A stretch of DNA of 64,000 bases. It comes from an uncultured Planctomycetaceae bacterium (GTDB lineage Bacteria > Planctomycetota > Planctomycetia > Planctomycetales > Planctomycetaceae). The position numbers and the translations under genes were made by a program. The notes beneath the pieces are model-generated. The model saw only the letters and a program-made list of their open reading frames with translations. It did no database searches and was not told the origin of the DNA. Numbering within the stretch: the stretch's first letter is position 1; every line of letters begins with the position of its first letter. Positions 3,940 to 40,684 of this stretch are shown here, piece by piece. The stretch spans positions 160,001-224,000 of the forward strand of contig CAWFAK010000016.1 of NCBI GenBank assembly GCA_963813715.1. Reading direction: 5' to 3'.

Positions 3940-4434
3940 ATGGCAGGAAATTCGTTAGTTGGTTCCGGGAATTTGCCGTTGAGCTCATCGCGCCCTACGA
4001 CCATTCCCGAACTGATTGAAACTTTCGACGCGCTGGGCGACTGGGAAGCGCAGTGCGACTATTTGATCGATCTGGGATACGACGTCCCGGACTTCCCTGA
4101 GTCGGCGCGGACAGAGGCCAACAAGGTTCATGGGTGCCAGAGCAACGTCTGGCTAATCGCCGCAACCAAGCCGGGGAACCCTCCGAAGATTGAGATTCAG
4201 GCAGAGAGCGACTCGATGATCGTTCAGGGTCTGATCGCCGTCCTGTTGATCGCCTATTCGGGGAAGTCGGCCCAAGAAATCCTGCAGACCGATATTCAGC
4301 AGATCTTCTCGCGACTCGGTTTGAATCGGCAGCTCAGTTCGGCCCGCCGCAACGGGCTGGCCGGCATGGTGCAACGCATCCGCTCGATTGCCGAGCAGTC
4401 AGCCGCCACCGGGTCGGCCGCGGAACCGTCGTGA
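3940..4434 (+). CDS. sufE: SufE family sulfur acceptor
   Basis: NKVHGCQSNVW, SDSMIVQGL, LSSARRNGL. Confidence 0.93.
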   Translation: MAGNSLVGSGNLPLSSSRPTTIPELIETFDALGDWEAQCDYLIDLGYDVPDFPESARTEANKVHGCQSNVWLIAATKPGNPPKIEIQAESDSMIVQGLIAVLLIAYSGKSAQEILQTDIQQIFSRLGLNRQLSSARRNGLAGMVQRIRSIAEQSAATGSAAEPS

Positions 4435-5708
4435 TGGTTGCCACTTCCGAGACTGCACCGCCCGCCAATCCCCACGACGCGCTCGATGCGGCGGCTGTCC
4501 GCGCACAGTTTCCGATCTTCGATCGCCCGCTGCCGAACGGTCAGCCACTCGTTTACCTCGACAGTGCGGCCAGCGCCCAAAAGCCGCACTCGGTGATCGA
4601 CAAAGAGCGGGAGTGCTACGAGCGGTATTACGCCAACGCCTACCGCGGCGACTACCAGTTCGGCATCCACATCGACGAAGAGCTGGAAGCCACGCGGGCC
4701 AAGGTCCGCGACTTCATCGGAGCGACGCAGAGCGAAGAGATCATCTTCACGTCCGGCACCACGATGTCGATCAACCTGGTGGCCAACGCCTGGGGCCGCA
4801 AGTTTTTGCGGGCCGGCGACGAAATTCTGCTCACGCAGATGGAGCACCATGCCAACCTGGTGCCGTGGCAGCAGGTGGCGCACGCGACGGGAGCGTCGGT
4901 CCGCTACATTCCGCTGACGAGCGATTGGCGACTCGATCTCAACCGGCTCGACGAAGTGCTGACCGACCGCACGCGGATCGTGGCCGTCAGCGGCATGTCG
5001 AATGTGCTGGGCACGGTGCCGCCGATTCGCGAGATCGCGGCCGCGGCCCGCAAGCGCGGAGCTCTGGTGCTCGTCGACGGGGCTCAGAGCGTGCCGCATC
5101 TGGCGACCAATGTCCGCGACCTCGACATCGATTTTCTGACCTTCTCGGCCCATAAGCTGTACGGTCCCAGCGGCGTGGGCGTGCTGTGGGGGCGACGCCG
5201 GCTGCTCGAGGCGATGGATCCGTTCCTGTGCGGCGGTCATATGATCTCCGAGGTCTTTTGGGACCACTCGACGTGGGCGGCCATTCCGGCGAAGTTCGAG
5301 GCGGGCACATTGCCGATCGCACAGGCGATCGCGCTGGGGACTGCCGTCGACTTCGTCACGGGTCTGGGTGTGTCTGCGATTCAGGCGCACGATGCCGACC
5401 TGACGGCTTACGCTCACAAACAGTTGGCGAGCGTTGCCGGTCTGCGGACCTTCGGGCCCGAGCCGGCGCACAAAGGGCCGATCGTCAGCTTCGCCATCGA
5501 GGGGATCCACCCACAGGACCTGGCGAACTTGATCGACCGCAAGGGAGTGGCTGTGCGGCATGGGCACCACTGCACGATGCCGCTGCACTCGCTCCTGGGC
5601 GTCTCCGCGACGACCCGCGCCAGCTTTGGCGTTTACACGACGCGCGGCGATATTGACGTGCTGATCGAGGCGATCGAGTTCGCCCGGCAAAAACTCCGTC
5701 GTGCCTGA
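4431..5708 (+). CDS. sufS: SufS-type cysteine desulfurase
   Basis: YLDSAASAQKP, MEHHAN, DGAQS, SAHKLYGP, RHGHHC; GTGA overlap with sufE. Confidence 0.95.
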   Translation: MMVATSETAPPANPHDALDAAAVRAQFPIFDRPLPNGQPLVYLDSAASAQKPHSVIDKERECYERYYANAYRGDYQFGIHIDEELEATRAKVRDFIGATQSEEIIFTSGTTMSINLVANAWGRKFLRAGDEILLTQMEHHANLVPWQQVAHATGASVRYIPLTSDWRLDLNRLDEVLTDRTRIVAVSGMSNVLGTVPPIREIAAAARKRGALVLVDGAQSVPHLATNVRDLDIDFLTFSAHKLYGPSGVGVLWGRRRLLEAMDPFLCGGHMISEVFWDHSTWAAIPAKFEAGTLPIAQAIALGTAVDFVTGLGVSAIQAHDADLTAYAHKQLASVAGLRTFGPEPAHKGPIVSFAIEGIHPQDLANLIDRKGVAVRHGHHCTMPLHSLLGVSATTRASFGVYTTRGDIDVLIEAIEFARQKLRRA

Positions 5709-29696: not shown

Positions 29697-29858
29697 GGAA
29701 TCTTTCCGCTCGTCGCCAGAAAAGAATCGGTCGCCGCTGGCGGCAACCTCTCAGCATCTTTTAGCGTGTCAAATTATGCAGAGCAACCGAGGCGTTTTGG
29801 CGCCGCGCATCGATCCCTGGGCCCAGAGACAATCACTCGGGCGAGGCCCGGCCCGCTT

Positions 29859-30437
29859 TCATGGGGGCAGCGCCACTAGCAGAATGTTGGCGCGGTCATA
29901 AACGTCATCCGGATCAAGTGAGTCTACCTCGTTTGGTTTCTCCCAGAAGCGACCGTGACCCAACCAATGCCTTGCCTTCAGGCACTCGCGGTACTGCCCG
30001 ACGACGTGGTTGTTAATGACGTGCGCTTCTTTAAGGACTTCGAGGATCCCGCCTTCGTCAAAGTCGGGTCGCAGCTGCTTTTTCGCTGATAGCTTTGCAT
30101 GCCATTTCTGGTAGGCGCGCGACAGCGGGTCCTTAAGTTTTTCGCGAACGCGACGAAAAAAGTCGGATCTCACTGACGCCTCCGCGCTCGCGACAAGATT
30201 CAAAACTGTCAATCGATCGAGTTCTCGCCTGGCTCGGTCGTAGTGCGCATCGACATCGTCGTCTGTCATGCCGGCGAATCTGGGTAGCACATTTGCGCCG
30301 ACCTGAATGGCGTGCAACACCGATGCACGTTGATCGACAAGTGCCTCATTGAGCCCTCGATTCCAATCGCGGATCTCATCGAGGGTCTGCGGTTCCGCTG
30401 TTGCATGATTTGCGGGCGGAATTGGCATCGCGCTCAA
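29859..30437 (-). CDS. Hypothetical protein with HEPN-like motifs (candidate RNase toxin)
   Basis: Predicted all-helical, EASVR (Ex3R) and RHWLGH (Rx4H); TTGA overlap with the upstream gene. Confidence 0.65.
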   Translation of the reverse strand: MSAMPIPPANHATAEPQTLDEIRDWNRGLNEALVDQRASVLHAIQVGANVLPRFAGMTDDDVDAHYDRARRELDRLTVLNLVASAEASVRSDFFRRVREKLKDPLSRAYQKWHAKLSAKKQLRPDFDEGGILEVLKEAHVINNHVVGQYRECLKARHWLGHGRFWEKPNEVDSLDPDDVYDRANILLVALPP

Positions 30438-30892
30438 TCCCGCATGATGCCCTGCAGAACATCGGCGAGTGAGGACTCGTCAAGAGGTATGACGGATAGC
30501 TTTGGCTGGCGAGACTGAACGAACCCCCATCCCCCCGCCTGGGGCTGAAAGATCAGCATCGCCTCATTCTTTTCGCCGATCACATCGACCCGACCTTCTG
30601 CCCCGGCAATGTTCCTCCCACGGGGGGAGAATCGAACTTGCTCACTCCCAATGACCAAGACAAGGTCTTCGACCGAATAAGTTCCAATGTAGTTCTCGGT
30701 CAGAACCTTCGAGCGACGCGTCTCGCTGATTTCCTTCTTGCCAAGTGGCTCTGCCAGAATCGCACTGATTCGTTTGTAGAGGTCGTCGACAGCCTTCAAA
30801 TACTCGTCACGGCGTTTATCCCAATCAACTTGGGCAACCGCGCCCGATTGTTGGCGTTTCTTGGCGAGTAGGTTTGCGAGATTTTGATCCAT
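30434..30892 (-). CDS. Hypothetical protein, partner of the HEPN-like gene
   Basis: GGAG RBS, ATG 30892; VDWDKRRDEY...GTYSVEDL...GAEGRVDV; more AT-rich than flanks. Confidence 0.8.
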   Translation of the reverse strand: MDQNLANLLAKKRQQSGAVAQVDWDKRRDEYLKAVDDLYKRISAILAEPLGKKEISETRRSKVLTENYIGTYSVEDLVLVIGSEQVRFSPRGRNIAGAEGRVDVIGEKNEAMLIFQPQAGGWGFVQSRQPKLSVIPLDESSLADVLQGIMRD

Positions 30893-31027
30893 TGCCAAAA
30901 CTCCGAAGAGGACGACGTTCCTCCATTCCTATCGTAACTCTCTCGACGAGATCGAAAGGAAGGACATCGAGTTCGCCTGAATGCAGAATGGTGGCGGGCG
31001 CGGATGAAACAGCGTACGATTTATTCG

Positions 31028-34000
31028 TCAAACCGAAGGCTCCGCGTCGAACGGATTGTCATCGCCTGTCATCGGCGGCGGCTCAGGCTCGCGAACTGAC
31101 GCCGGCGCGGGGCGTGCGGCGGCTGGTGGTGACGGCGGCGAGGCGTGGCGAAATGTGGTCGCGACTTTGGAGACCCACTCGGCCGACGGCACGGCATACG
31201 GCCGCAGCTTTTCGGTCGTGCCGAGTTCGCGGAGGTACAAGAGCGCACGGTGGCCGCCCAGGCGGGAGGCCGCCGGCGAGTCGATCAGGCTGCTCGAGTC
31301 GGCGGAGTTCATTTGAAAGCCGATTCGCACCTCGAACTCGCGCAAGGTCGATTGCGTGATCCAGCGGGTGAGGTTGCTGTAGGTGTCGCACCAGACGATC
31401 GAGTGCACGTTGAGGCCCGGGCCGTCCTTGAAGATGTCTGCCAACTGGGCTCCGGCTTGCGGGCCGCGGGAGTCGTCGGTGCGGCCGAAGCCGAATTCGT
31501 CCTGCTCGTTGCGCAGGTCGCGGAAGCGGCTGTAATTCGAAAGGAACACGAAGATCGGCGGCTGGTCTTTGCCCGTCTCCTCTTTGCGGCGGGCGACTTC
31601 AGCGGCGATCATGGCGACGGTGGCGGCCGCTTCCTTCTGGCCAGCCCGGACGATGCGATGCGGCAGCTGTTCGACGATTTGCTTCCAGCGGGTTCCGTCG
31701 TCGGCATCGTTCGCGTCGCCGTCGAGCACGAAAAACTGGGCGGGTGAGGGATCGTCGGGACCGGCGGGCTTGATCTGGGCGGCTAGGGTGATCAGGGCGA
31801 CCATCATCATGCCCTGCGAAGCCGGCGCGTCCTGCCCAATGATCATCATGTTGTCGCCGGGACGCTGCGTGATGCCGATCCGCGTCGGCGGCTTGATCGA
31901 GACGGCTTCACCCAGCCAAAGCGATAAAGATTCTCGTCGGCGGGCCTCGCCGTTGAAGAGCGTGGAGAACCGATCGATCGCCTCGCCGATCGACTGGTTA
32001 TCCCGCGGGTCCGAGGCCAGGTTACCCTCGAACACGATGGCCGGATCGATGCGGAACTGCTTTTCCTCGGTCCGCTCTTGGATGATCCCCAAGAAGTGGT
32101 CGCGGCGCTCGTCGGGGAGCCAGGCGATCTGGAACGGGTGATTGCCTTCGGTGAGGCCGTTGGAGTCGTTGTAAATGGCTTCGCCGGGGCGGGTGAGCAG
32201 GCGGGCAGCGCCGTTCTCTTCGCTCAAGATCAGGTGCGCGTCGCTCTCGCTGCACTGCAGCGCGATCCGCACGCCGATCTGTCCCAGCGTGCTGCGGGCC
32301 AGCGAATACGCGCCGCCCAGAGTTTGCGAGCCCAGTAATACGTGCATGCCGAACGCACGGCCCTGGCGGACGAGCCGGTCGAGCAAGAGGTTGGCCGCCT
32401 GCGAAAGCTGATCATCCTCGACGAAGAATTCCTGGAACTCGTCGATGATCAGCAGGATTCGAGGCAGTTTCTTGTCTGGCTCGGCGTTGCGAAAACCCTT
32501 GATATCCTGCACGCCGACTTTACGGAACAGTTCGCCGCGCTCCTTGAGGATGCCGTCGAGCCGCTCGAGCACGCTGATGCCGAACTCGCGATCGCTCTCG
32601 ATGCCGATGATCCGCGCGTGGGGCATCGCGTGGCTGGCGTACGTTTTGAACTCGACGCCTTTCTTGAAGTCGACGAGATAGAACTGCATCTCGTCCGGCG
32701 CGTAGTGCAGACCGATGTTCACGATCAGCGTGTGTAAGAGCGACGATTTGCCCGAGCCCGTCTTGCCGGCGATCATCACGTGCTGCGACGTGCCGCTCCC
32801 CAGGTTGAGATGCTGCAGCTTGGTGGCGCCGGCGCGGCCGAGGGGGATGTCGACCCCGGCGCGGCTGTCCTGATGCCACAACTGGCCGTTCTTCGGGACG
32901 ATCCGCTCGAAGGCCACTTCGACGCGCCGCGCGTCCTTCGACAGCATACCGGACTTTCTCACGATCTCGGCAAAGTCGTTCGCTCGTGGGGGCGTCTCCA
33001 TTCGCACCGGGAAGTGGGCCAACACGGGGTCGCGGAGCACGAAGCGGCCGCCCGCCCAGTCGAACGTGGTCGCGGTCGCCTCGAGGTCGGACTTCTCGAA
33101 GCCGTGCGGCATCGCCTGTCGGCTATCCATGCTGAGCAACGTGTAAACGCCGCACTTGGGCCCGCTGCGGGCGATGCTCAACAGCCGCTGGGCCGCGCCG
33201 TCGCTGAAGCCGGAAGGAAAATTGGCGACGACCAGAAAGCGGTAGGGCTCGGCGACTTCGCCGGCTTGCTCGTTGTATTCCTCGATCGTTTCGTACTCGT
33301 TGCGGAGATACGCTTGAAAGACGTTCTCCATGTGCTCGGAGAGCTCCGTCAGCTTTTCTTCGATGTCGTGCTTTTCGGTCCAGATCCGCTTGGTGATGAT
33401 GAGTTCGTCGTAGTCCGCCAGATGGCTGAAGACGGAAAGCGCCTGCCCGCGGTCGGCCCCGTCGATCATCGTGAAACGGATCTTGCCGCCGGGCAGCGAC
33501 GTCAACAGCCGCAGCATCACTGACTTGATTCCCTCGACGGCGACGTCCCGCCCTTCCCCCTGACATTCCCAGAGCATCGACGCGTGCCCGGGGAACGGCA
33601 GCACGAACGGGACCGCGATCCGCGCCGGATCCGGCTTGAGCGCGGGATCCTCCGACAGGCCGTCGGGAATCTTGGCGAAGTCGACCTCGTAGCTACCGAC
33701 GCGGATCGGCACGCGGACTTCCGTCGGCAGTTTCCAGTCGGCCTCGAGGAACTTGTTCCAGTGCGGCGAGGTCTGGTCGCATTCCTCGCGCCGCTCGGCG
33801 GCCATTTGGAAGAACTTGCTGGTCGCGCCCCGCCACTTTTCGGCCAGCGCTCCGCGGGCCTCCGCCTCGCGCGCCCGCCGCTGCGATGTCTGCTCGGACG
33901 TTTTGCGTCGGGCCGACTCCTGAGTCATTCGGCGTCCGCCGGTCACCTCGCCTTTTTTCTTGCCGAAATCGTCGTCGAGCGCGCCGAGTGCTGCTTCGCG

Positions 34001-35125
34001 GCGGCGCTCCACGTCGGCGAGCAGGGCCGGAAACTTCTGTTCGGCTTCGGCCAGGCGAAAGGCTTTTCTGGACTCGGCATCTTCCAGACGTTGCGCCGAT
34101 TTGCTTTCGAGATTGGTCAGCGCACGCTCGCGTTGGGCGGCGACCTCGGCCTGCCGCCGCTCGTATTGCTTCTTGCGCTCCTGCAACTCGGCCTTGGCGA
34201 ACTCGCCCCAGCGACGGTGGGCCGCTTTCAGGTCGGCGGAGGCCTGCTCCAACTGCTCGAAGACAGGGCCGCTCTTCGAGCGGGACATACCGAAGAGGAT
34301 CGAAAGCACGATCAGCACGACCACGGCGGACACCCCGGCGGCCGCAATCTGCCACGTGGTCTGGTTGTTGAGCGCGTCGATCTTGAACATGGTGCGATCG
34401 ACGAAGAGCAGCATCGGCGCAAAGATCGCCAGCCAGACGAAGAGAAAGAGCAGCATCGGCCACCAGCCGCTGAAGAGGCGGGGCAGCGTTTGGCGGCGGA
34501 GGGTCGCCTGGGCGGTCTGGATGGCCGTGGACGCCGCTTGAAACTGGTCCTCGGCCTCCTGGAGATCCTCGGGCTTGCCGACCGCTTCGATTTCTCCCTC
34601 GCCCTGCCACTGGCGACGGTCCTGCATCAGCTCGGTCGTTGCCTTGACGGCCTCGTCCATCTCCCGGCGTTGCTGCGTCAGGCGGTCTTTGGTGCCAGTC
34701 AAGCGTTTCTTGAACGTCTCGTACTGGTATCGCGGGCTATCGTGAGCGTTGTCGTCGAGGACCGAAGTCACCATCCAGCTGGCGTCGGCCTTTTCCTTGT
34801 CGGCGGCCTCTTGCTCGTTGCCGCATTCCAACTCGATCTCGCGCAGCTCGGCCTGCTGCTGCGTGCGGATGGCGTTTTCTTCCTGCTCGAACTGCAGCAC
34901 GAGGGCGGCGCGCGACTGCTCCCACTTTTGTTGCGCTTCCTCCAGCTGCTGGTCGAACTGTGAGCCGATCTTTTTGAGGTGCTTTTGCAGCTCGTATTCG
35001 GGATCGTCGAAGCTGCTGGTGAACTCGGCCGTGACTTCTTGTTCGGCCGCGGCGCGCTCCTTTGCTGACGCCAGCAGAGCTTCCAACTCGCTTTTCATCG
35101 GAGCGGCAGCGGCCAGTTCCGCCAT
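31028..35125 (-). CDS. Membrane-anchored FtsK/SpoIIIE-family ATPase, EccC/EssC-like
   Basis: Coiled coil, two TM helices, coiled coil, degenerate ATPase-like domain, intact domain (GKTGSGKS, DFKKG, LIIDEFQ, QGRAFGMH), second degenerate domain. Confidence 0.9.
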   Translation of the reverse strand: MAELAAAAPMKSELEALLASAKERAAAEQEVTAEFTSSFDDPEYELQKHLKKIGSQFDQQLEEAQQKWEQSRAALVLQFEQEENAIRTQQQAELREIELECGNEQEAADKEKADASWMVTSVLDDNAHDSPRYQYETFKKRLTGTKDRLTQQRREMDEAVKATTELMQDRRQWQGEGEIEAVGKPEDLQEAEDQFQAASTAIQTAQATLRRQTLPRLFSGWWPMLLFLFVWLAIFAPMLLFVDRTMFKIDALNNQTTWQIAAAGVSAVVVLIVLSILFGMSRSKSGPVFEQLEQASADLKAAHRRWGEFAKAELQERKKQYERRQAEVAAQRERALTNLESKSAQRLEDAESRKAFRLAEAEQKFPALLADVERRREAALGALDDDFGKKKGEVTGGRRMTQESARRKTSEQTSQRRAREAEARGALAEKWRGATSKFFQMAAERREECDQTSPHWNKFLEADWKLPTEVRVPIRVGSYEVDFAKIPDGLSEDPALKPDPARIAVPFVLPFPGHASMLWECQGEGRDVAVEGIKSVMLRLLTSLPGGKIRFTMIDGADRGQALSVFSHLADYDELIITKRIWTEKHDIEEKLTELSEHMENVFQAYLRNEYETIEEYNEQAGEVAEPYRFLVVANFPSGFSDGAAQRLLSIARSGPKCGVYTLLSMDSRQAMPHGFEKSDLEATATTFDWAGGRFVLRDPVLAHFPVRMETPPRANDFAEIVRKSGMLSKDARRVEVAFERIVPKNGQLWHQDSRAGVDIPLGRAGATKLQHLNLGSGTSQHVMIAGKTGSGKSSLLHTLIVNIGLHYAPDEMQFYLVDFKKGVEFKTYASHAMPHARIIGIESDREFGISVLERLDGILKERGELFRKVGVQDIKGFRNAEPDKKLPRILLIIDEFQEFFVEDDQLSQAANLLLDRLVRQGRAFGMHVLLGSQTLGGAYSLARSTLGQIGVRIALQCSESDAHLILSEENGAARLLTRPGEAIYNDSNGLTEGNHPFQIAWLPDERRDHFLGIIQERTEEKQFRIDPAIVFEGNLASDPRDNQSIGEAIDRFSTLFNGEARRRESLSLWLGEAVSIKPPTRIGITQRPGDNMMIIGQDAPASQGMMMVALITLAAQIKPAGPDDPSPAQFFVLDGDANDADDGTRWKQIVEQLPHRIVRAGQKEAAATVAMIAAEVARRKEETGKDQPPIFVFLSNYSRFRDLRNEQDEFGFGRTDDSRGPQAGAQLADIFKDGPGLNVHSIVWCDTYSNLTRWITQSTLREFEVRIGFQMNSADSSSLIDSPAASRLGGHRALLYLRELGTTEKLRPYAVPSAEWVSKVATTFRHASPPSPPAAARPAPASVREPEPPPMTGDDNPFDAEPSV

Positions 35126-35167
35126 CGAATTGTCACTTTCGGATCGAATGCGGGAGGAGGAGAGGAA

Positions 35168-35407
35168 TTATCGAGCGCCTTCGGGGGGGCCGCAGCCGCG
35201 GCGGGCCTGTCCCATCGTTTCGCTCAAGGGGACGGTGGCCTCGATGACCTCATTGAGCTGCTGAATGATCGGCGCGATATGCGCTTCTTCGAGGTTGCGG
35301 CTGGTTTCATCGTCCCAGTTCTGCTTCGCCTCGCGCCAAGAGCGCTCGAGGTAGTCGATTGCCCCGTGCAGCTTTGCCAACGCACCGGAGAATTGTCCGA
35401 CCGTCAT
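35168..35407 (-). CDS. Small WXG100-like helical hairpin protein (WDD)
   Basis: 79 aa, two amphipathic helices around NWDDE; ATGA overlap with the upstream gene. Confidence 0.75.
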   Translation of the reverse strand: MTVGQFSGALAKLHGAIDYLERSWREAKQNWDDETSRNLEEAHIAPIIQQLNEVIEATVPLSETMGQARRGCGPPEGAR

Positions 35408-36099
35408 GAGTCCGCCCTCGCGGCGGGTTCGGGAGTGGCCGTCTCGAGCGGCTGGCCCTCAGACGCTTCGCCGCCGGCGTTTTCGGCCGCTGCGGCCTCC
35501 GCGCTGGGCGCTTCGGCCGCCGTGGCCTCGTCGGTTTTGGCAGTCGGAGGAGCAGCGTCCAGCTCGCGCGGGGCGTCGAGATTGATTTCGACGTTGGCGT
35601 TGAGATCAGACGCGGCGCCCCGCTGGAGCTGCGCGTAGTCCTCCAGGGCGGCGATCATGCGGTCGAGCATCATCTTGATTCGCGGCAGCCCCTTGCCGAC
35701 CATCTGTTCGACGCGGCCGACGCGTGCCGTGTATTCATCGGCCGCATGATGTGCCTTGATGCTCCATTGCCGGCAGGCCTGGACCTTCTGTTGGGCCAGC
35801 TCGAGGTTCTGCTTGGCCTTGGCGAGGGCTTTCTTCTCGTCGATGCACTCGGAGCGGTGGCCGGCGACCGTGATCATCGACTTCCGCGTCAGCTGCGTGC
35901 GCGCCTCGGCCACACGATCGAAGCCCGTCCGCACCTGGTTCTGCCAGTACTGCGGACAGTCGTGATCGATCCACTGCAGAGTGCGGTTGATCTCGACGCG
36001 GAGGGTGGTGAGCGCGGCCGCGAGGTCCTCCTCGAACTGCGACACCTTCGGCCGAAACCGCTGCACGGAATCGAGCGAACGGACGTTAGCGCGGGGCAT
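35404..36099 (-). CDS. Extended WXG100-like coiled-coil protein with Ala/Glu/Pro tail
   Basis: N-terminus and LDRMIAALEDY resemble the neighbouring 90-aa WXG100-like protein. Confidence 0.75.
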   Translation of the reverse strand: MPRANVRSLDSVQRFRPKVSQFEEDLAAALTTLRVEINRTLQWIDHDCPQYWQNQVRTGFDRVAEARTQLTRKSMITVAGHRSECIDEKKALAKAKQNLELAQQKVQACRQWSIKAHHAADEYTARVGRVEQMVGKGLPRIKMMLDRMIAALEDYAQLQRGAASDLNANVEINLDAPRELDAAPPTAKTDEATAAEAPSAEAAAAENAGGEASEGQPLETATPEPAARADS

Positions 36100-36122
36100 A
36101 ACGGTTCCTCAAGGCCCATCTC

Positions 36123-36146
36123 GAGCGGAGGGTGCAACCCCCCGAG
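36123..36146 (+). repeat. Short palindromic REP-like unit, copy 3
   Basis: gagcggagggtgcaaccccccgag. Confidence 0.55.
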
Positions 36147-36229
36147 ATTTTCTTGCTCTGCTTTTTGACTTCGACAGATCTGCTTTTCCGCCGGATCAGT
36201 GAATTAAGGCGCCCAGGCTCGGTTGTGGC

Positions 36230-36502
36230 TTAGCGCTGCTGCATGTATTCCTCGATCCGCTCGGCCTTGCGGAGCAGATACGGAATATGCTGATTGTTGG
36301 CCTCGATGAAGCGGGCGATCATCTTCATGTGACCTTCGAACTCGGTGCGGAACTTGATTTGTTCCTGGTCGCGCCACGAGTTCGTCAGGTCGTTCAGCTG
36401 GTTGGCCATCGCGCTCATCCGTTCCCCCAGCTCGTTGTTGAACTTCTTCAACATCTGGGCAAACCGGCGGAGTTCGGCGGGATCGACAATGGCTTGTGGC
36501 AT
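36230..36502 (-). CDS. WXG100 (ESAT-6/EsxA-like) family protein
   Basis: 90 aa, IVDPAELRRFA start, central SWRD in place of WxG, helix-turn-helix; strong TAAGGA RBS. Confidence 0.88.
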   Translation of the reverse strand: MPQAIVDPAELRRFAQMLKKFNNELGERMSAMANQLNDLTNSWRDQEQIKFRTEFEGHMKMIARFIEANNQHIPYLLRKAERIEEYMQQR

Positions 36503-36634
36503 GTTCGTTCCTTATCAACAGAAGACGGCCCGGCTCCCTCGGCGCGAATGAGATGCGTTGGATGTGTCTGGCGAGAGACGGTCTCCGGTCGGGCAGGCGG
36601 AACCTGCTTCGTTCGTGTGAGCCCGCTCAACTCA

Positions 36635-36663
36635 ACTTTACCGCTCACCAAGGGTTGCTTCAA
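36635..36663 (-). promoter_or_regulatory. Sigma70-like promoter of the WXG100-FtsK operon
   Basis: TTGAAG-17 nt-TAAAGT on the minus strand. Confidence 0.55.
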
Positions 36664-36877
36664 GACGCCTCTCACGATCCGATTGGGGCCAAATCGCATC
36701 GCGAATGGCACCTGCCCGGGCAAAATTTGCCCAAAACGAAGCTCCAAAAAGGGGCTGTTGCCCCCTCCGACCGCAAGTTACGATGGGCCTGGGGCAGTCT
36801 TTGGGCGATGCCTCGGTCGAGCCGTCTCCGCGGGCCCGCGGTTCACGCTTACCGCCGTCTACGAAAGACCTGCGCAG

Positions 36878-37633
36878 ATGCCTCGAACGGCCGCCACGGC
36901 CTATAGTGCCGACCTGGCGTACATCCACGATGCCGGCTTTGGACACGTGGCCGCCAACGCGGCGGTCGAACTGCTCAAACGCTTGCGAAAGAGCCGGAAA
37001 CGCGACTCCCCCGGGCTGGTGATCGATGCCGGCTGTGGCAGCGGGATTCTCTCCCAGGCAGTTTCGGCGGCCGGATACCACGTGCTTGGCTTCGATTACT
37101 CCGAGTCGATGCTGGCACTCGCCCGCAAACGTGCGCCGCGGGCCGTGTTTCGCCGCGAATCGTTTGTGACGGCCGAGCTGCCGCCCTGCATCGCGATTAC
37201 GGCAATCGGCGAAGTCTTCAACTATTTGTTCGATCGGCGAAACCGGGGCAACCTGCTCCCTCGCGTGCTGCGAAAAATGTATCAGGCCCTTGAGCCCGGC
37301 GGCCTGTTGCTGTTCGATGTGGCCACTCCCGGTCGCGTTCCCGGCTCGACGCCGACGCGAGGCTTCTCCGAGGGGCCCGGTTGGACGGTGCTGTATACGG
37401 CGGAGGAGGACCGCCGCCGACTGACGCTCACCCGCACGATCACCAGCTTTTGGAAAGTGGGCGACTTCTATCGCCGTAACCGCGAAGTTCATCGGTTGCG
37501 CCTGTATCCGCGCAGCAGCGTTCTGCAGGAGCTGCGGAGCGCCGGCTTTCAGGTCCGCCCTCTCAACGGCTACAGCCGTTTCCGCTTTCCGCCCGGATGG
37601 GTGGCTTTCGCGGCGACCAAACCGCGCCGCTGA
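36878..37633 (+). CDS. Class I SAM-dependent methyltransferase
   Basis: VIDAGCGSG, LGFDYS, ALEPGGLLLFD. Confidence 0.9.
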   Translation: MPRTAATAYSADLAYIHDAGFGHVAANAAVELLKRLRKSRKRDSPGLVIDAGCGSGILSQAVSAAGYHVLGFDYSESMLALARKRAPRAVFRRESFVTAELPPCIAITAIGEVFNYLFDRRNRGNLLPRVLRKMYQALEPGGLLLFDVATPGRVPGSTPTRGFSEGPGWTVLYTAEEDRRRLTLTRTITSFWKVGDFYRRNREVHRLRLYPRSSVLQELRSAGFQVRPLNGYSRFRFPPGWVAFAATKPRR

Positions 37634-37900: not shown

Positions 37901-40684
37901 GTGACAGTCTTGGCCGATGACGGCGACGGCGATATCGACGAGGGGCTGACGCCCGAGGAAATCCCCACCGGCGCGGGCGATGTCTCTTCCGAGCGGATCA
38001 AGCCGCTCGACATCGAAGACGAGCTGCGCTCGAGCTATCTCAGCTACGCGATGAGCGTGATTATCAGCCGCGCTCTGCCCGACGCCCGTGACGGGCTCAA
38101 GCCCTCGCAGCGCCGCATTCTCGTCGCAATGAACGACCTGAATCTGGGCCCCGCCAGCCAGCGCGTGAAGTGCGCGAAAATCTCGGGAGACACCAGCGGT
38201 AACTACCATCCGCACGGCGAATCGGTGATCTACCCGACGCTCGTCCGCCTGGCCCAGTCGTGGATCATGCGGAACGTGCTGATCGACAAGCAGGGCAACT
38301 TCGGGTCGCTGGCCGGCCTGCCTCCCGCGGCCATGCGGTACACGGAAGCCCGCCTGTCCGCCGTGGCGTCCGAAATGCTCGACGACATCGACAGCGACAC
38401 GGTCGACTATGTCGATTCGTACGACCAGCGCAATCGCGAGCCGGTCGTGCTGCCGTCGCGGTTTCCCAACCTGCTGGTCAACGGCTCGAGCGGGATCGCG
38501 GTCGGCATGGCGACCAGCATCCCGCCGCACAATTTGAACGAAGTCGCCGACGCCGTGATTAAGGTAATCGACGACCCCGAGTGCACGATTGACGACCTGC
38601 TGGAAGTCATGCCCGGTCCCGACTTCCCCACCGGCGGCATCATTTGCGGCCGCGAAGGGATCCGGCAGGGCTATCTGACCGGCCGTTCGACGATCACGCT
38701 CCGCGCGGCCACGCATTTCGAGACCGAGAAAAATTCCGACGTGATCGTGGTCACCGAGATTCCGTATCTGGAAACGCGTGACCGACTGAAGGAAAAGCTC
38801 GAAGACCTGGTGCGGGACGACCGCATCAAGGGCATTTCCCGGATCGTCGACTTCACCGACCGCAAGACGCCCGAGTGGCAGGTGCGGTTGCACATTGTGC
38901 TCAAGCGCGATGCCGACCGCGACGTGATCCTCAACCAGCTCTTCCAGTACTCGACGCTGCAAGTCACGTTCAGCGTGATCCTGCTGGCGCTGGTGGCGAA
39001 CCGCCCGCAAACGATGTCAGTGAAGGCAATCCTGGAGGAATTCCTGCGGCACCGCGTGACGGTGATCCGCCGCCGAACGGAATTCCTGCTGGCGGAAGCT
39101 CGCAAGCGCAAGCACACGGTGGAAGGCCTGCTCATCGCCCAGAGCGAGATCGATAAGGTCATCGCCACCATTCGCTCGGCCGCGAGCCGCGCCGCTGCAA
39201 AAGACGCGCTGCAGGCGATCGACGTGCCGGCGGAGCTGGTCGCCCGCGCCCTGGGCGACATCGGCTTTAAAGACTTTCAGAGCGAAAAAGGGGTCGCGGA
39301 GATTTATCACCTCTCCGCGAATCAGTCGGAAGCCATCGTTTCGATGCAGCTGGGTTCGTTGGCCAACCTCGAGCGAGAAACGCTGCGCGGCGAGCACGCC
39401 AAGCTGCTCGAAAGCATCATCGAGTATTTGCGGCTCCTCTCCGACGAAGCCCATATCCGGGCTCTCGTGCGGCAAGAGATGCTCGAAATCAAGGAGAAGT
39501 ACGGCAACAAACGCCGCACGCAAATCTCCGAAGAAGAAACGACCGAGCTCAATCGCGACGACCTTGTGGCCGAGGAACCGATGGTCGTCACGCTGTCGCA
39601 ACGGGGTTACGTCAAGCGGACGCCGCTGAGCACGTACCAGGCCCAGCATCGGGGCGGCAAGGGCATCACGGGCGTCAAGAGCGATGAAGAGGACGACGTC
39701 AAGCACCTGTTCGTCGCCAGCACGCACGCGTATCTGCTCTTCTTTACCGATCGCGGCCGCGTGCACTGGCAGAAGGTCTACGACCTGCCTTTGCAAAGCC
39801 GGACGAGTCGCGGCCGGGCTATCGTCAACCTGCTGGCGCTGAAGGACGGCGAGGAACGGGTGACGAGTTGCCTGGCGGTCCGCGAATTCACCGACGACCG
39901 CTTCCTGATCATGGCCACCCGCAACGGCACGGTGAAAAAGACGGCCCTCTCCGCCTTCAGCCGCCCGATGAAGGGGGGCATCATCGCGATCAAGCTCGAC
40001 GAGGGGGACGAACTGATCGACGTGCTCAGCGTCTCGGGCGACGACGACGTCGTGCTCGCCACGCGCAACGGCATGTCGATCCGCTTCTCGCACCACGACG
40101 CTCGCCCGATGGGCCGGGCGACGCACGGTGTACGCGGCATCAGCCTGGGCGATCAAGACGCGGTCGCCGGCATGGTCGTTGCTGACTCCATGATGACGCT
40201 GCTTACCGTTTGCGAATTGGGCTACGGCAAACGAACGCCGTTCGGCCAGGCCGCGACTGAAGGGGAGGCAGGTGAACCGGGCGCAGCTGAAGGCGACGAG
40301 GTTGCACTCGACGCCGAAGCCGCGGCTGAGCCCGAAGACGAAACATCCGAAGCGCCGACGGGCGAGACCGAGCCGGCCGAGGGCGAGGAAGGTGAAGAAG
40401 CGGCCGCTTACTCAGGCAACCAGCGTTATCGCCGGCAGCGGCGCGGCGGCAAAGGCCTGCGCGACATTCGCACGACCGACCGCAACGGGAAAGTCGTCGA
40501 CATCGTGGCGGTGGCCGATGATGATGAAGTCATCATGATCACGGCCCGCGGCAAAATTCAGCGGGTCCGCGCCGCCGACATCAGCCAGATCGGCCGCAAC
40601 ACGCAGGGCGTGCGGATCATCCGCCTCGACGACGCGGACACGCTCGTTTCGCTGGCACGGATTCCAGCCAAGATCTCCGAATAA
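37901..40684 (+). CDS. gyrA: DNA gyrase subunit A
   Basis: [30 protein letters not shown], GyrA-box QHRGGKG, beta-pinwheel repeats. Confidence 0.98.

Follow-up and report, generated by a model that had tools for sequence, protein, structure and literature searches.

A four-gene type VII secretion-like module of Planctomycetota, with one WXG100 protein and an EccC/EssC-like ATPase

The closest described systems are the type VII secretion systems (T7SSs). The canonical set of T7SSa (ESX) includes EccB, EccD, EccE and MycP; that of T7SSb (Ess) includes EssA, EssB (YukC), EsaA and EsaB (YukD). In EccC, nucleotide-binding motifs are found in all three ATPase domains (D1 to D3). In LXG-Lap complexes, a protein with a long helical N-terminal domain and a C-terminal toxin is paired with two small hairpin proteins. 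HP0062 of Helicobacter pylori is a dimeric hairpin with WRD at its turn and is encoded in a cluster with an FtsK/SpoIIIE gene, as given in PMC3397514. Footnote 6 of Table 1 in Zhang et al. 2012 (PMC3482391) places planctomycetes among the lineages that have a solo WXG gene and a distinct three-domain ATPase, of which only the middle domain is active; the same footnote terms this solo-WXG class 'mobile versions of T7SS'. The module described here is of this kind. It lies in a stretch of 64,000 nucleotides (the window) from an uncultured Planctomycetaceae bacterium (GCA_963813715.1, contig CAWFAK010000016.1; genome of 7.49 Mb, 82.6% complete). A sequence-only reading of the window had proposed a minimal T7SS-like operon of three WxD proteins and an ATPase, with no prior description; this last claim must yield to the footnote, in which this kind of module is already in print. 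No functional study of such a module in planctomycetes was found in the literature searched (subscription journals outside its scope). The transposon-insertion sequencing (TraDIS) paper on P. limnophila (PMC10632474, main text and five supplements) mentions, of FtsK/SpoIIIE and WXG/ESAT proteins, only the true FtsK (Plim_2063) and contains nothing on the module.

The module consists of four co-oriented minus-strand open reading frames (ORFs) in the order gene 1, gene 2, gene 3, gene 4 (the ATPase), all present at the sizes first given for them (Table 1). The proposed ATGA overlap of the gene 2 stop and the gene 3 start is also there, and gene 4 starts 42 bases after the end of gene 3. With confidence evenly divided, the module is read here as a stripped-down T7SS relative, whose ATPase would carry the three helical proteins, joined in a complex, through the inner membrane into the periplasm. 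Such a minimal exporter fits best because of the homology of its parts, the single intact motor, the transmembrane (TM) hairpin, the co-occurrence of all four genes and the existence of toxin-bearing relatives.

The gene 1 protein matches the Pfam WXG100 model (PF06013) at 33.5 bits (cut-off 27.3), which bears out its first assignment, and is the sole match over cut-off in the genome. The central WRD was found at residues 43-45; a canonical W-x-G is not present at the turn, W-R-D standing in its place. The 19 orthologues compared are all of 90 amino acids (aa), with a mean column identity of 72%. W43, D45, Q46 and E47 are invariant in them, and the C-terminal tail of the family (IP-x-LLRKA-x-R..EYLQQR) is nearly so. 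The best solved match of the family profile is HP0062 (3fx7, E 8.2e-10, aligned end to end over 1-87; 2gts). Further matches are EsxB (4j42, E 3.2e-9) and Staphylococcus aureus EsxA (2vs0, E 4.9e-4). By these profile matches, gene 1 is assigned to the WXG100 proteins of the HP0062 kind. Across six distant loci, gene 1 keeps 56% identity; the values for the ATPase core, gene 2 and gene 3 are 51%, 29% and 25.5%. No hydrophobic N-terminal signal was seen on inspection of the three small protein sequences.

The gene 4 protein includes, in this order, an N-terminal coiled-coil region, a TM hairpin, a second coiled-coil region and three FtsK-like domains, that is, the N-terminal TM anchor and tandem FtsK-like P-loop domains of the EccC/EssC architecture. 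The two-TM FtsK-type ATPase of the sequence-only reading is recovered as two hydrophobic segments and one FtsK_SpoIIIE match (95.7 bits). The TM segments are at the same position in most of the 23 orthologues and are flanked by about 215 residues before and about 190 after, largely coiled-coil-like. Exactly one Walker A (G[KR]TGSGKS; G-x4-GK[ST]) and one Walker B (DEF; LLIIDEF in the window) were found in all 23 orthologues, both in the middle domain. In the first domain, GK[ST] is missing from the P-loop position and the residue at the Walker B position is not acidic; the third domain also lacks both motifs. Nucleotide-binding motifs in all three domains, as in EccC, are thus not found in any of the 23.

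Among solved structures, the ATPase is closest in sequence to EccC5 (7np7, E 1.9e-32), Thermomonospora curvata EccC (4nh0, E 3.8e-30) and Bacillus subtilis YukB (9qks, E 1.6e-20); the match to FtsK is far weaker (E 2.7e-8). Together with the WXG100 protein, these matches sustain the claim of T7SS-homologous parts. The best sequence match of the middle domain is EccC5 domain D1 (489-675). A model of residues 470-1335 (pLDDT 85.1, pTM 0.74) comprises three alpha/beta P-loop-like domains; Foldseek ranks the cytoplasmic part of EccC, with its three domains, first (4nh0, E 7.4e-31). VIA-align superposes the model on 4nh0 with Z 27.9 over 726 collinear residues (model 1-845 on EccC 444-1315), and its middle and third domains on EssC D2-D3 (4lya) with Z 29.1 over 491 residues. 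The three modelled domains and EccC D1-D3 are thus collinear. The NCBIfam equivalog cut-offs are not reached (EccCa 108.9 for 509.15, EccCb 86.2 for 346.55, EssC 97.9 for 778.4 bits), and these models match the single intact domain only.

The 79-aa gene 3 protein contains WDD, as first described, at residues 31-33. W24, W31 and D33 are invariant in its family. The window protein itself has no PF06013 match; 5/16 family members match PF06013 (best E 9.6e-5) and 3/16 match WXG100_2. An hhalign comparison with the gene 1 family gives E 8.5e-4 and a probability of 24%, with the WxD motifs in register. In an atlas comparison, used for leads only, the nearest named cluster for gene 3 is WXG100 (0.84); other look-alikes there, also leads only, are Planctomycetota and Verrucomicrobiota clusters that have no Pfam family. 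Gene 3 is therefore rated weakly WXG100-like by its sequence.

Gene 2 is of another type. Its AlphaFold model (pLDDT 78.4) is a single two-helix hairpin (helices 9-75 and 86-167) of roughly double the length of a WXG100 hairpin, followed by a disordered Ala/Pro/Glu-rich tail (residues 168-231); tails in the family span 9-83 residues rich in Ala, Pro, Glu, Ser and Thr. No WxD was found at the turn. No Pfam hit was obtained for the protein or its family, 0/20 members match WXG100, and hhalign against the WXG100 family gives a probability of 10% (E 0.0033, N-terminus only). The proposed 'extended paralogue' is not borne out by these comparisons, and the three WxD proteins first announced become one clear WXG100 protein, one weak one and one member of a different long-hairpin family. 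Foldseek with the gene 2 model returned generic long hairpins only (the chemoreceptor 3g6b, SteB 9hmx and CT398 4ilo; best E 0.014), from which no family assignment follows. Pfam has no model for the gene 2 family, although it is a large one: with its profile, 3041 cluster representatives are matched at E ≤1e-3, and 971 still at E ≤1e-30.

An orthologue-level ATPase match was found in 32 of 40 relatives; the other eight have none or only true FtsK. Around such matches 30 loci were fetched, that of the window included, and the small genes were sought by tblastn, which gave 22 loci with gene 1, 20 with gene 2 and 16 with gene 3. The order 1-2-3-ATPase is almost always kept, and most loci that gave no match end at contig ends. 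The linkage to the ATPase supposed in the sequence-only reading is thus conserved in other genomes. Of 597 pattern matches in a one-genome-per-species scan, 499 were confirmed as ATPase-core relatives; the best 80 of these 499 are labelled as planctomycetes in 79 cases and as 'uncultured bacterium' in one. The presumed planctomycete host agrees with this, as does the presumed diderm envelope with an Omp85/BamA homologue in the genome (184.7 bits).

Within Planctomycetota, the phyletic distribution is the same for all four families. In an evenly drawn sample of 401 genomes, that of the window included, the ATPase family (E ≤1e-40) is present in at least 61, a floor set by a stricter first look. 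Searched without that stricter step, the gene 1 family (E ≤1e-8) is found in 61 genomes identical to the ATPase set. The gene 2 family (E ≤1e-5) is found in 60 of the 61 ATPase carriers and the gene 3 family (E ≤1e-4) in 60 genomes identical to the gene 2 set. The sole exception to the full set is a genome (G175) that is 91% complete and in 330 contigs. None of the four families is found in the remaining 340. Related genomes in the sample are not independent. Whole genera of the window's family were found to have no set, one-contig genomes included (g31 0/7, g34 0/5, g44 0/2); it follows that the module is dispensable and that its genes are lost together.

In the window's family, the set is found in 23 of the 40 sampled genomes. 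The four genes are together in 5 of these 23 and dispersed over two to four separate loci in the other 18, all being kept (for example at 2.50, 4.30 and 5.92 Mb of one contig in G016, and at 0.23, 0.71, 1.94 and 2.66 Mb in G159). That the genes are kept although unlinked argues strongly for a joint function of the four proteins. In other families they almost always lie in a cluster. In one genome (G340, contig C16, L123), the trio has the order gene 2, gene 3, gene 1 and is about 183 kb from the ATPase gene; the trio can thus rearrange and detach outside the window's family too.

In a maximum-likelihood tree built quickly from 23 full-length ATPases (careful search unfinished, root arbitrary), these group by taxonomic family. 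Seven of the 29 relatives' loci (L013-L018, L036), which are partial, split or at contig ends, were left out. The window's family (f1, 12 rows) forms one clade with support 100. Six family labels need 6 changes on this tree, for a minimum of 5 and a mean of 10.5 after shuffling; none of 200 shuffles was as low. The module is single copy in all 61 carriers except one. In that genome (G301, contig C3, about 233360-237803), a second divergent set contains an ATPase (E 2.4e-173), a pair of neighbouring genes that are weakly WXG100-like (E 5.8e-11 and 4.7e-9) and a gene 3-like gene (E 5.0e-7); nothing else that was seen pointed to duplication or transfer. The agreement of the tree with taxonomy, the housekeeping neighbours and the single copy argue for vertical, not mobile, inheritance in Planctomycetota.

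Relatives on plasmids are few. A tblastn search of 72,556 plasmids with the ATPase gave five records (two from Rhodococcus, one each from Deinococcus, Caballeronia and Helicobacter), four of which were examined in detail. In these four, WXG100 profile scores are 77.8, 46.5, 34.0 and 21.4 bits, and ATPase profile scores are 413.8, 260.3, 525.3 and 339.5 bits, with all three domains covered. The gene 2- and gene 3-like proteins are weak or positional matches only: E 0.0035 and 0.0039 by hhalign for the Caballeronia counterparts, 11-21 bits in the Deinococcus and Rhodococcus plasmids, and nothing significant by hhalign for the Helicobacter proteins. The Helicobacter plasmid has, at gene position 2, a 340-aa protein with a C-terminal WHH/colicin-DNase nuclease (44.6 and 36.4 bits), and the gene after it encodes a SUKH (SMI1_KNR4) immunity protein. 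This cassette suggests, by its domain content, a link of the module class to exported toxins.

No N-terminal TM hairpin was seen in the Caballeronia and Helicobacter plasmid ATPases. The Rhodococcus ATPase has an N-terminal TerD domain (69.1 bits) and no TM hairpin; its cassette (L141, 3327-8757) has the order ATPase, 314-aa protein, 73-aa protein, 87-aa WXG100 protein and is adjoined by TerD and DUF475 genes. On the Deinococcus actinosclerus plasmid (L140), a 142-aa protein with a hydrophobic C-terminal segment (residues 122-140) is encoded at 4288-4716, directly before the anchorless ATPase, and may be a split-off membrane anchor. On Caballeronia plasmid pSBC2-5 (L139, 1501-11629), the cassette lies among VWA, CARF (DUF1887), PP2C, Ser/Thr kinase and AAA genes. 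Its gene-position-2 protein (436 aa) has a long helical N-terminus and no Pfam hit; a D...E-V-K pattern in its C-terminus may, by eye, be PD-(D/E)xK nuclease-like.

The C-terminus of gene 2 relatives also varies in planctomycetes. Of the 3041 family representatives, 10 were scanned for C-terminal domains. Among the top 150 relatives, six span 340-371 aa, each with an Imm33-like domain at its end (PF24719, 36-57 bits); none was found in four relatives of 255-260 aa. In the cassettes of three other planctomycetes, the gene 2 homologue carries an Imm33-like domain at 32.6, 32.7 and 23.9 bits (cut-off 27); the homologue of a fourth cassette (240 aa) has none. Judged by these domain matches, the gene 2 hairpin looks like a carrier with exchangeable C-terminal parts.

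The exporter could operate as follows. The membrane-anchored ATPase would drive translocation with the one ATP-binding domain that is intact. Like EccC in ESX-5 structures, it could form a hexamer with the TM hairpins lining a pore. The third domain is predicted to be a docking site for a substrate tail: the invariant C-terminal tail of gene 1 could dock on it as the EsxB tail does on EccC D3 (4n1a). The long hairpin of gene 2 would pair with the two short hairpins as a rod, whose putative 'cargo' would vary at the gene 2 C-terminus (in the window a disordered tail, elsewhere in planctomycetes an Imm33-like domain, on plasmids of other phyla a nuclease toxin).

A search of the whole genome for the other T7SS membrane components was empty, which extends to the genome what had first been said of the window. 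EccB gave no match at E ≤1; EccD, EsaA and the LXG domain gave none. YukC/EssB reached 11.9 bits (cut-off 27.4), YukD 17 bits (cut-off 27) and EccE 17.1 bits (cut-off 23.7), the EccE model being over cut-off in 0/14 control genomes. In the canonical T7SSa set, EccB, EccD and EccE were not found and MycP was not searched for; in the T7SSb set, EssB, EsaA and EsaB were not found and EssA was not searched for. At 82.6% completeness, these components are not found rather than absent.

Several points weigh against the exporter. As no other T7SS membrane component was found, the ATPase itself would have to be the pore. Gene 1 is the most conserved of the four, which is unusual for a secreted effector. 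The middle domain alone superposes on the FtsK DNA motor (6t8b) with Z 31.1 and is, as modelled, structurally as close to it as to EccC. Membrane anchoring is not constant across the class, as two plasmid ATPases have no TM hairpin and a third has TerD instead. The homology of genes 2 and 3 to their plasmid counterparts is weak. The Imm33-like fusion fits a cytoplasmic role at least equally, because immunity proteins normally act in the cytoplasm. Export to the periplasm is itself wholly inferred.

Most of these points are shared by the best-surviving alternative, a non-secretory membrane-associated machine in which nothing crosses: the ATPase would assemble, remodel or dismantle a cytoplasmic hairpin bundle with a structural or regulatory role. 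The missing translocon parts, the anchorless plasmid ATPases and the Imm33-like domain are all compatible with it. A gene 1 protein that is more conserved than the ATPase and always 90 aa long resembles a core subunit rather than an effector, and the long coiled-coil regions that flank the TM hairpin lie on the cytoplasmic side. However, the nearest characterised relatives of the WXG100 protein and of the ATPase are secretion components, and the TM hairpin is kept in most orthologues. The plasmid nuclease toxin with its immunity gene makes sense mainly if the toxin exits the cell. This alternative is taken seriously and rated rather unlikely.

The module could also serve in conflict or defence, the ATPase sensing or acting on foreign DNA or toxins and the hairpins being intracellular regulators or effectors. 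Its middle domain matches FtsK/HerA-type domains of defence proteins: the padloc matches are SspH (93.5 bits) and mad8 (87.1 bits), and HerA defence complexes superpose with Z 17-20. The padloc matches span the generic P-loop domain only, however, and padloc gave nothing solid for genes 2 and 3. The gene company of the Caballeronia cassette and the toxin, immunity and Imm33-like domains of cassette proteins point the same way as the HerA and padloc matches. Defence islands are typically patchy, mobile and clustered; in Planctomycetota, by contrast, the module is single copy (G301 excepted) beside housekeeping genes (gyrA, mdh), its ATPase tree tracks taxonomic families and its genes are retained as a set even when scattered. 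A defence function is therefore held improbable in this phylum. That the module is the functionless, decaying remnant of a once complete T7SS, as its missing components and two degenerate ATPase domains might suggest, is scarcely credible: all frames are intact, Walker A and B are invariant in 23/23 orthologues, gene 1 keeps 56% identity across families, the four families co-occur in the 401-genome sample, and the degenerate domain pattern is design, not decay, because it is itself conserved.

The exporter reading can be carried further, to a self-sufficient minimal translocon in which an ATPase hexamer alone would be the pore and would thread a three-protein rod with exchangeable cargo. In Planctomycetota it would have been domesticated from a toxin exporter into a vertically inherited envelope function that holds the scattered genes together. 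This fuller version is doubtful, and clearly more so than export as such.

Table 1. Features of the module (positions in the window; residues are those of the gene 4 protein)
Feature	Position	Strand	Basis
Gene 1, 90-aa WXG100 protein	36502..36230	minus	ORF and PF06013 match
Gene 2, 231-aa long helical hairpin	36099..35404	minus	ORF and AlphaFold model
Gene 3, 79-aa WxD helical protein, weakly WXG100-like	35407..35168	minus	ORF and family comparison
Gene 4, 1365-aa EccC/EssC-like ATPase	35125..31028	minus	ORF, FtsK_SpoIIIE match, models
TM hairpin, residues 224-242 and 260-278	34292..34456	minus	hydropathy scan
First FtsK-like domain, degenerate, residues ~470-735	32921..33718	minus	model and alignment
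Middle FtsK-like domain, sole intact one, residues ~755-1030	32036..32863	minus	model and alignment
Walker A GKTGSGKS, residues 787-794	32744..32767	minus	middle domain
Third FtsK-like domain, degenerate P-loop, conserved RFRDLR, residues ~1065-1330	31136..31933	minus	model and alignment
Promoter-like hexamers TTGAAG-17-TAAAGT	36663..36635	minus	weak consensus match

The promoter first proposed is present as letters: its two hexamers stand where they were said to be. As a promoter they are no better than chance, with 8/12 consensus positions matched; a scan of 29700-37000 at ≥9/12 positions gave 0 sites, for an expectation of 0.8 in shuffled sequence. Metatranscriptome contigs from four runs of four studies (labelled soil, rhizosphere) cover the cassette in parts at ≥95% identity. 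The gene 1/gene 2 junction is spanned by contigs 35487-36509 and 35750-36277 and the gene 2/gene 3 junction by contig 35173-35451. One contig stops at 36617 with an adapter, a weak hint of a 5′ end. In runs X1-X3, 29903-31100 and other stretches are uncovered; neither gaps nor depth were interpreted. These contigs give no strand or level and could include DNA carry-over; they lend weak support to transcription of the cassette.

Upstream of the cassette are gyrA (37901-40684, plus strand) and a methyltransferase gene; downstream are malate/lactate dehydrogenase (mdh) and class-III aminotransferase genes. The longest methyltransferase ORF (36287-37633, plus) overlaps gene 1 antisense. Its true start is probably later, because the Pfam domain begins only at residue 222. 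A terminator-like hairpin with a T-run (36744-36770, minus strand) is found just upstream of the cassette. Directly 3′ of the ATPase gene are two minus-strand ORFs, 30898..30434 (154 aa) and 30437..29859 (192 aa), which overlap by 4 bases. Seen in the window genome alone among the 30 loci compared, this pair is outside the module. G+C is lower around it (0.599 in the 30001-32000 bin). No match was obtained for the pair in Pfam and nothing solid in padloc. The 192-aa protein has an R-x4-H motif (RHWLGH), which is presumably of the kind found in HEPN domains. The pair may be an inserted toxin-antitoxin or defence pair.

New here are the four-component definition, the retention of the genes when scattered, the vertical inheritance and the modular gene 2 C-terminus. 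The matching presence and absence of the four families, even where unlinked, defines a four-component unit. Should the ATPase and the three helical proteins be enough for export, no smaller type VII-like system would be known; it would operate in an outer-membrane bacterium and reveal which components of the large ESX/Ess machines form the true core. The variable gene 2 C-terminus suggests a general cargo-carrier principle in common with LXG-type toxins.

As in the class of the Zhang et al. footnote (PMC3482391), a single WXG gene is present in the genome and only the middle one of three FtsK-like domains is intact; the WRD that replaces WXG at the turn and the best solved profile match are those of HP0062. 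Unlike the 'mobile' systems named there, the module is chromosomal, its ATPase tree tracks taxonomy and it is kept when scattered, so that mobility was not found for it. Neither genes 2 and 3 nor a TM hairpin with a coiled-coil N-terminus are named in that footnote. With T7SSb, the module has in common a WXG100 protein and a multi-domain FtsK-like membrane ATPase, the last two domains of which match EssC D2-D3. Gene 2, as a putative long helical carrier paired with two small hairpins, would resemble the LXG-Lap arrangement. It differs from T7SSb in that the genome gave neither an EssB/YukC, EsaA or YukD match over cut-off nor an LXG domain, in an ATPase that has no FHA domain hit in Pfam and three P-loop-like domains, not four, with one active, and in its diderm host. 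From T7SSa it differs in that EccB, EccD and EccE were not found, in its one intact Walker A and in the long coiled coils beside the TM hairpin. With T7SSa it shares the best sequence matches, EccC5 and T. curvata EccC, an N-terminal two-TM anchor and three domains collinear with D1-D3.

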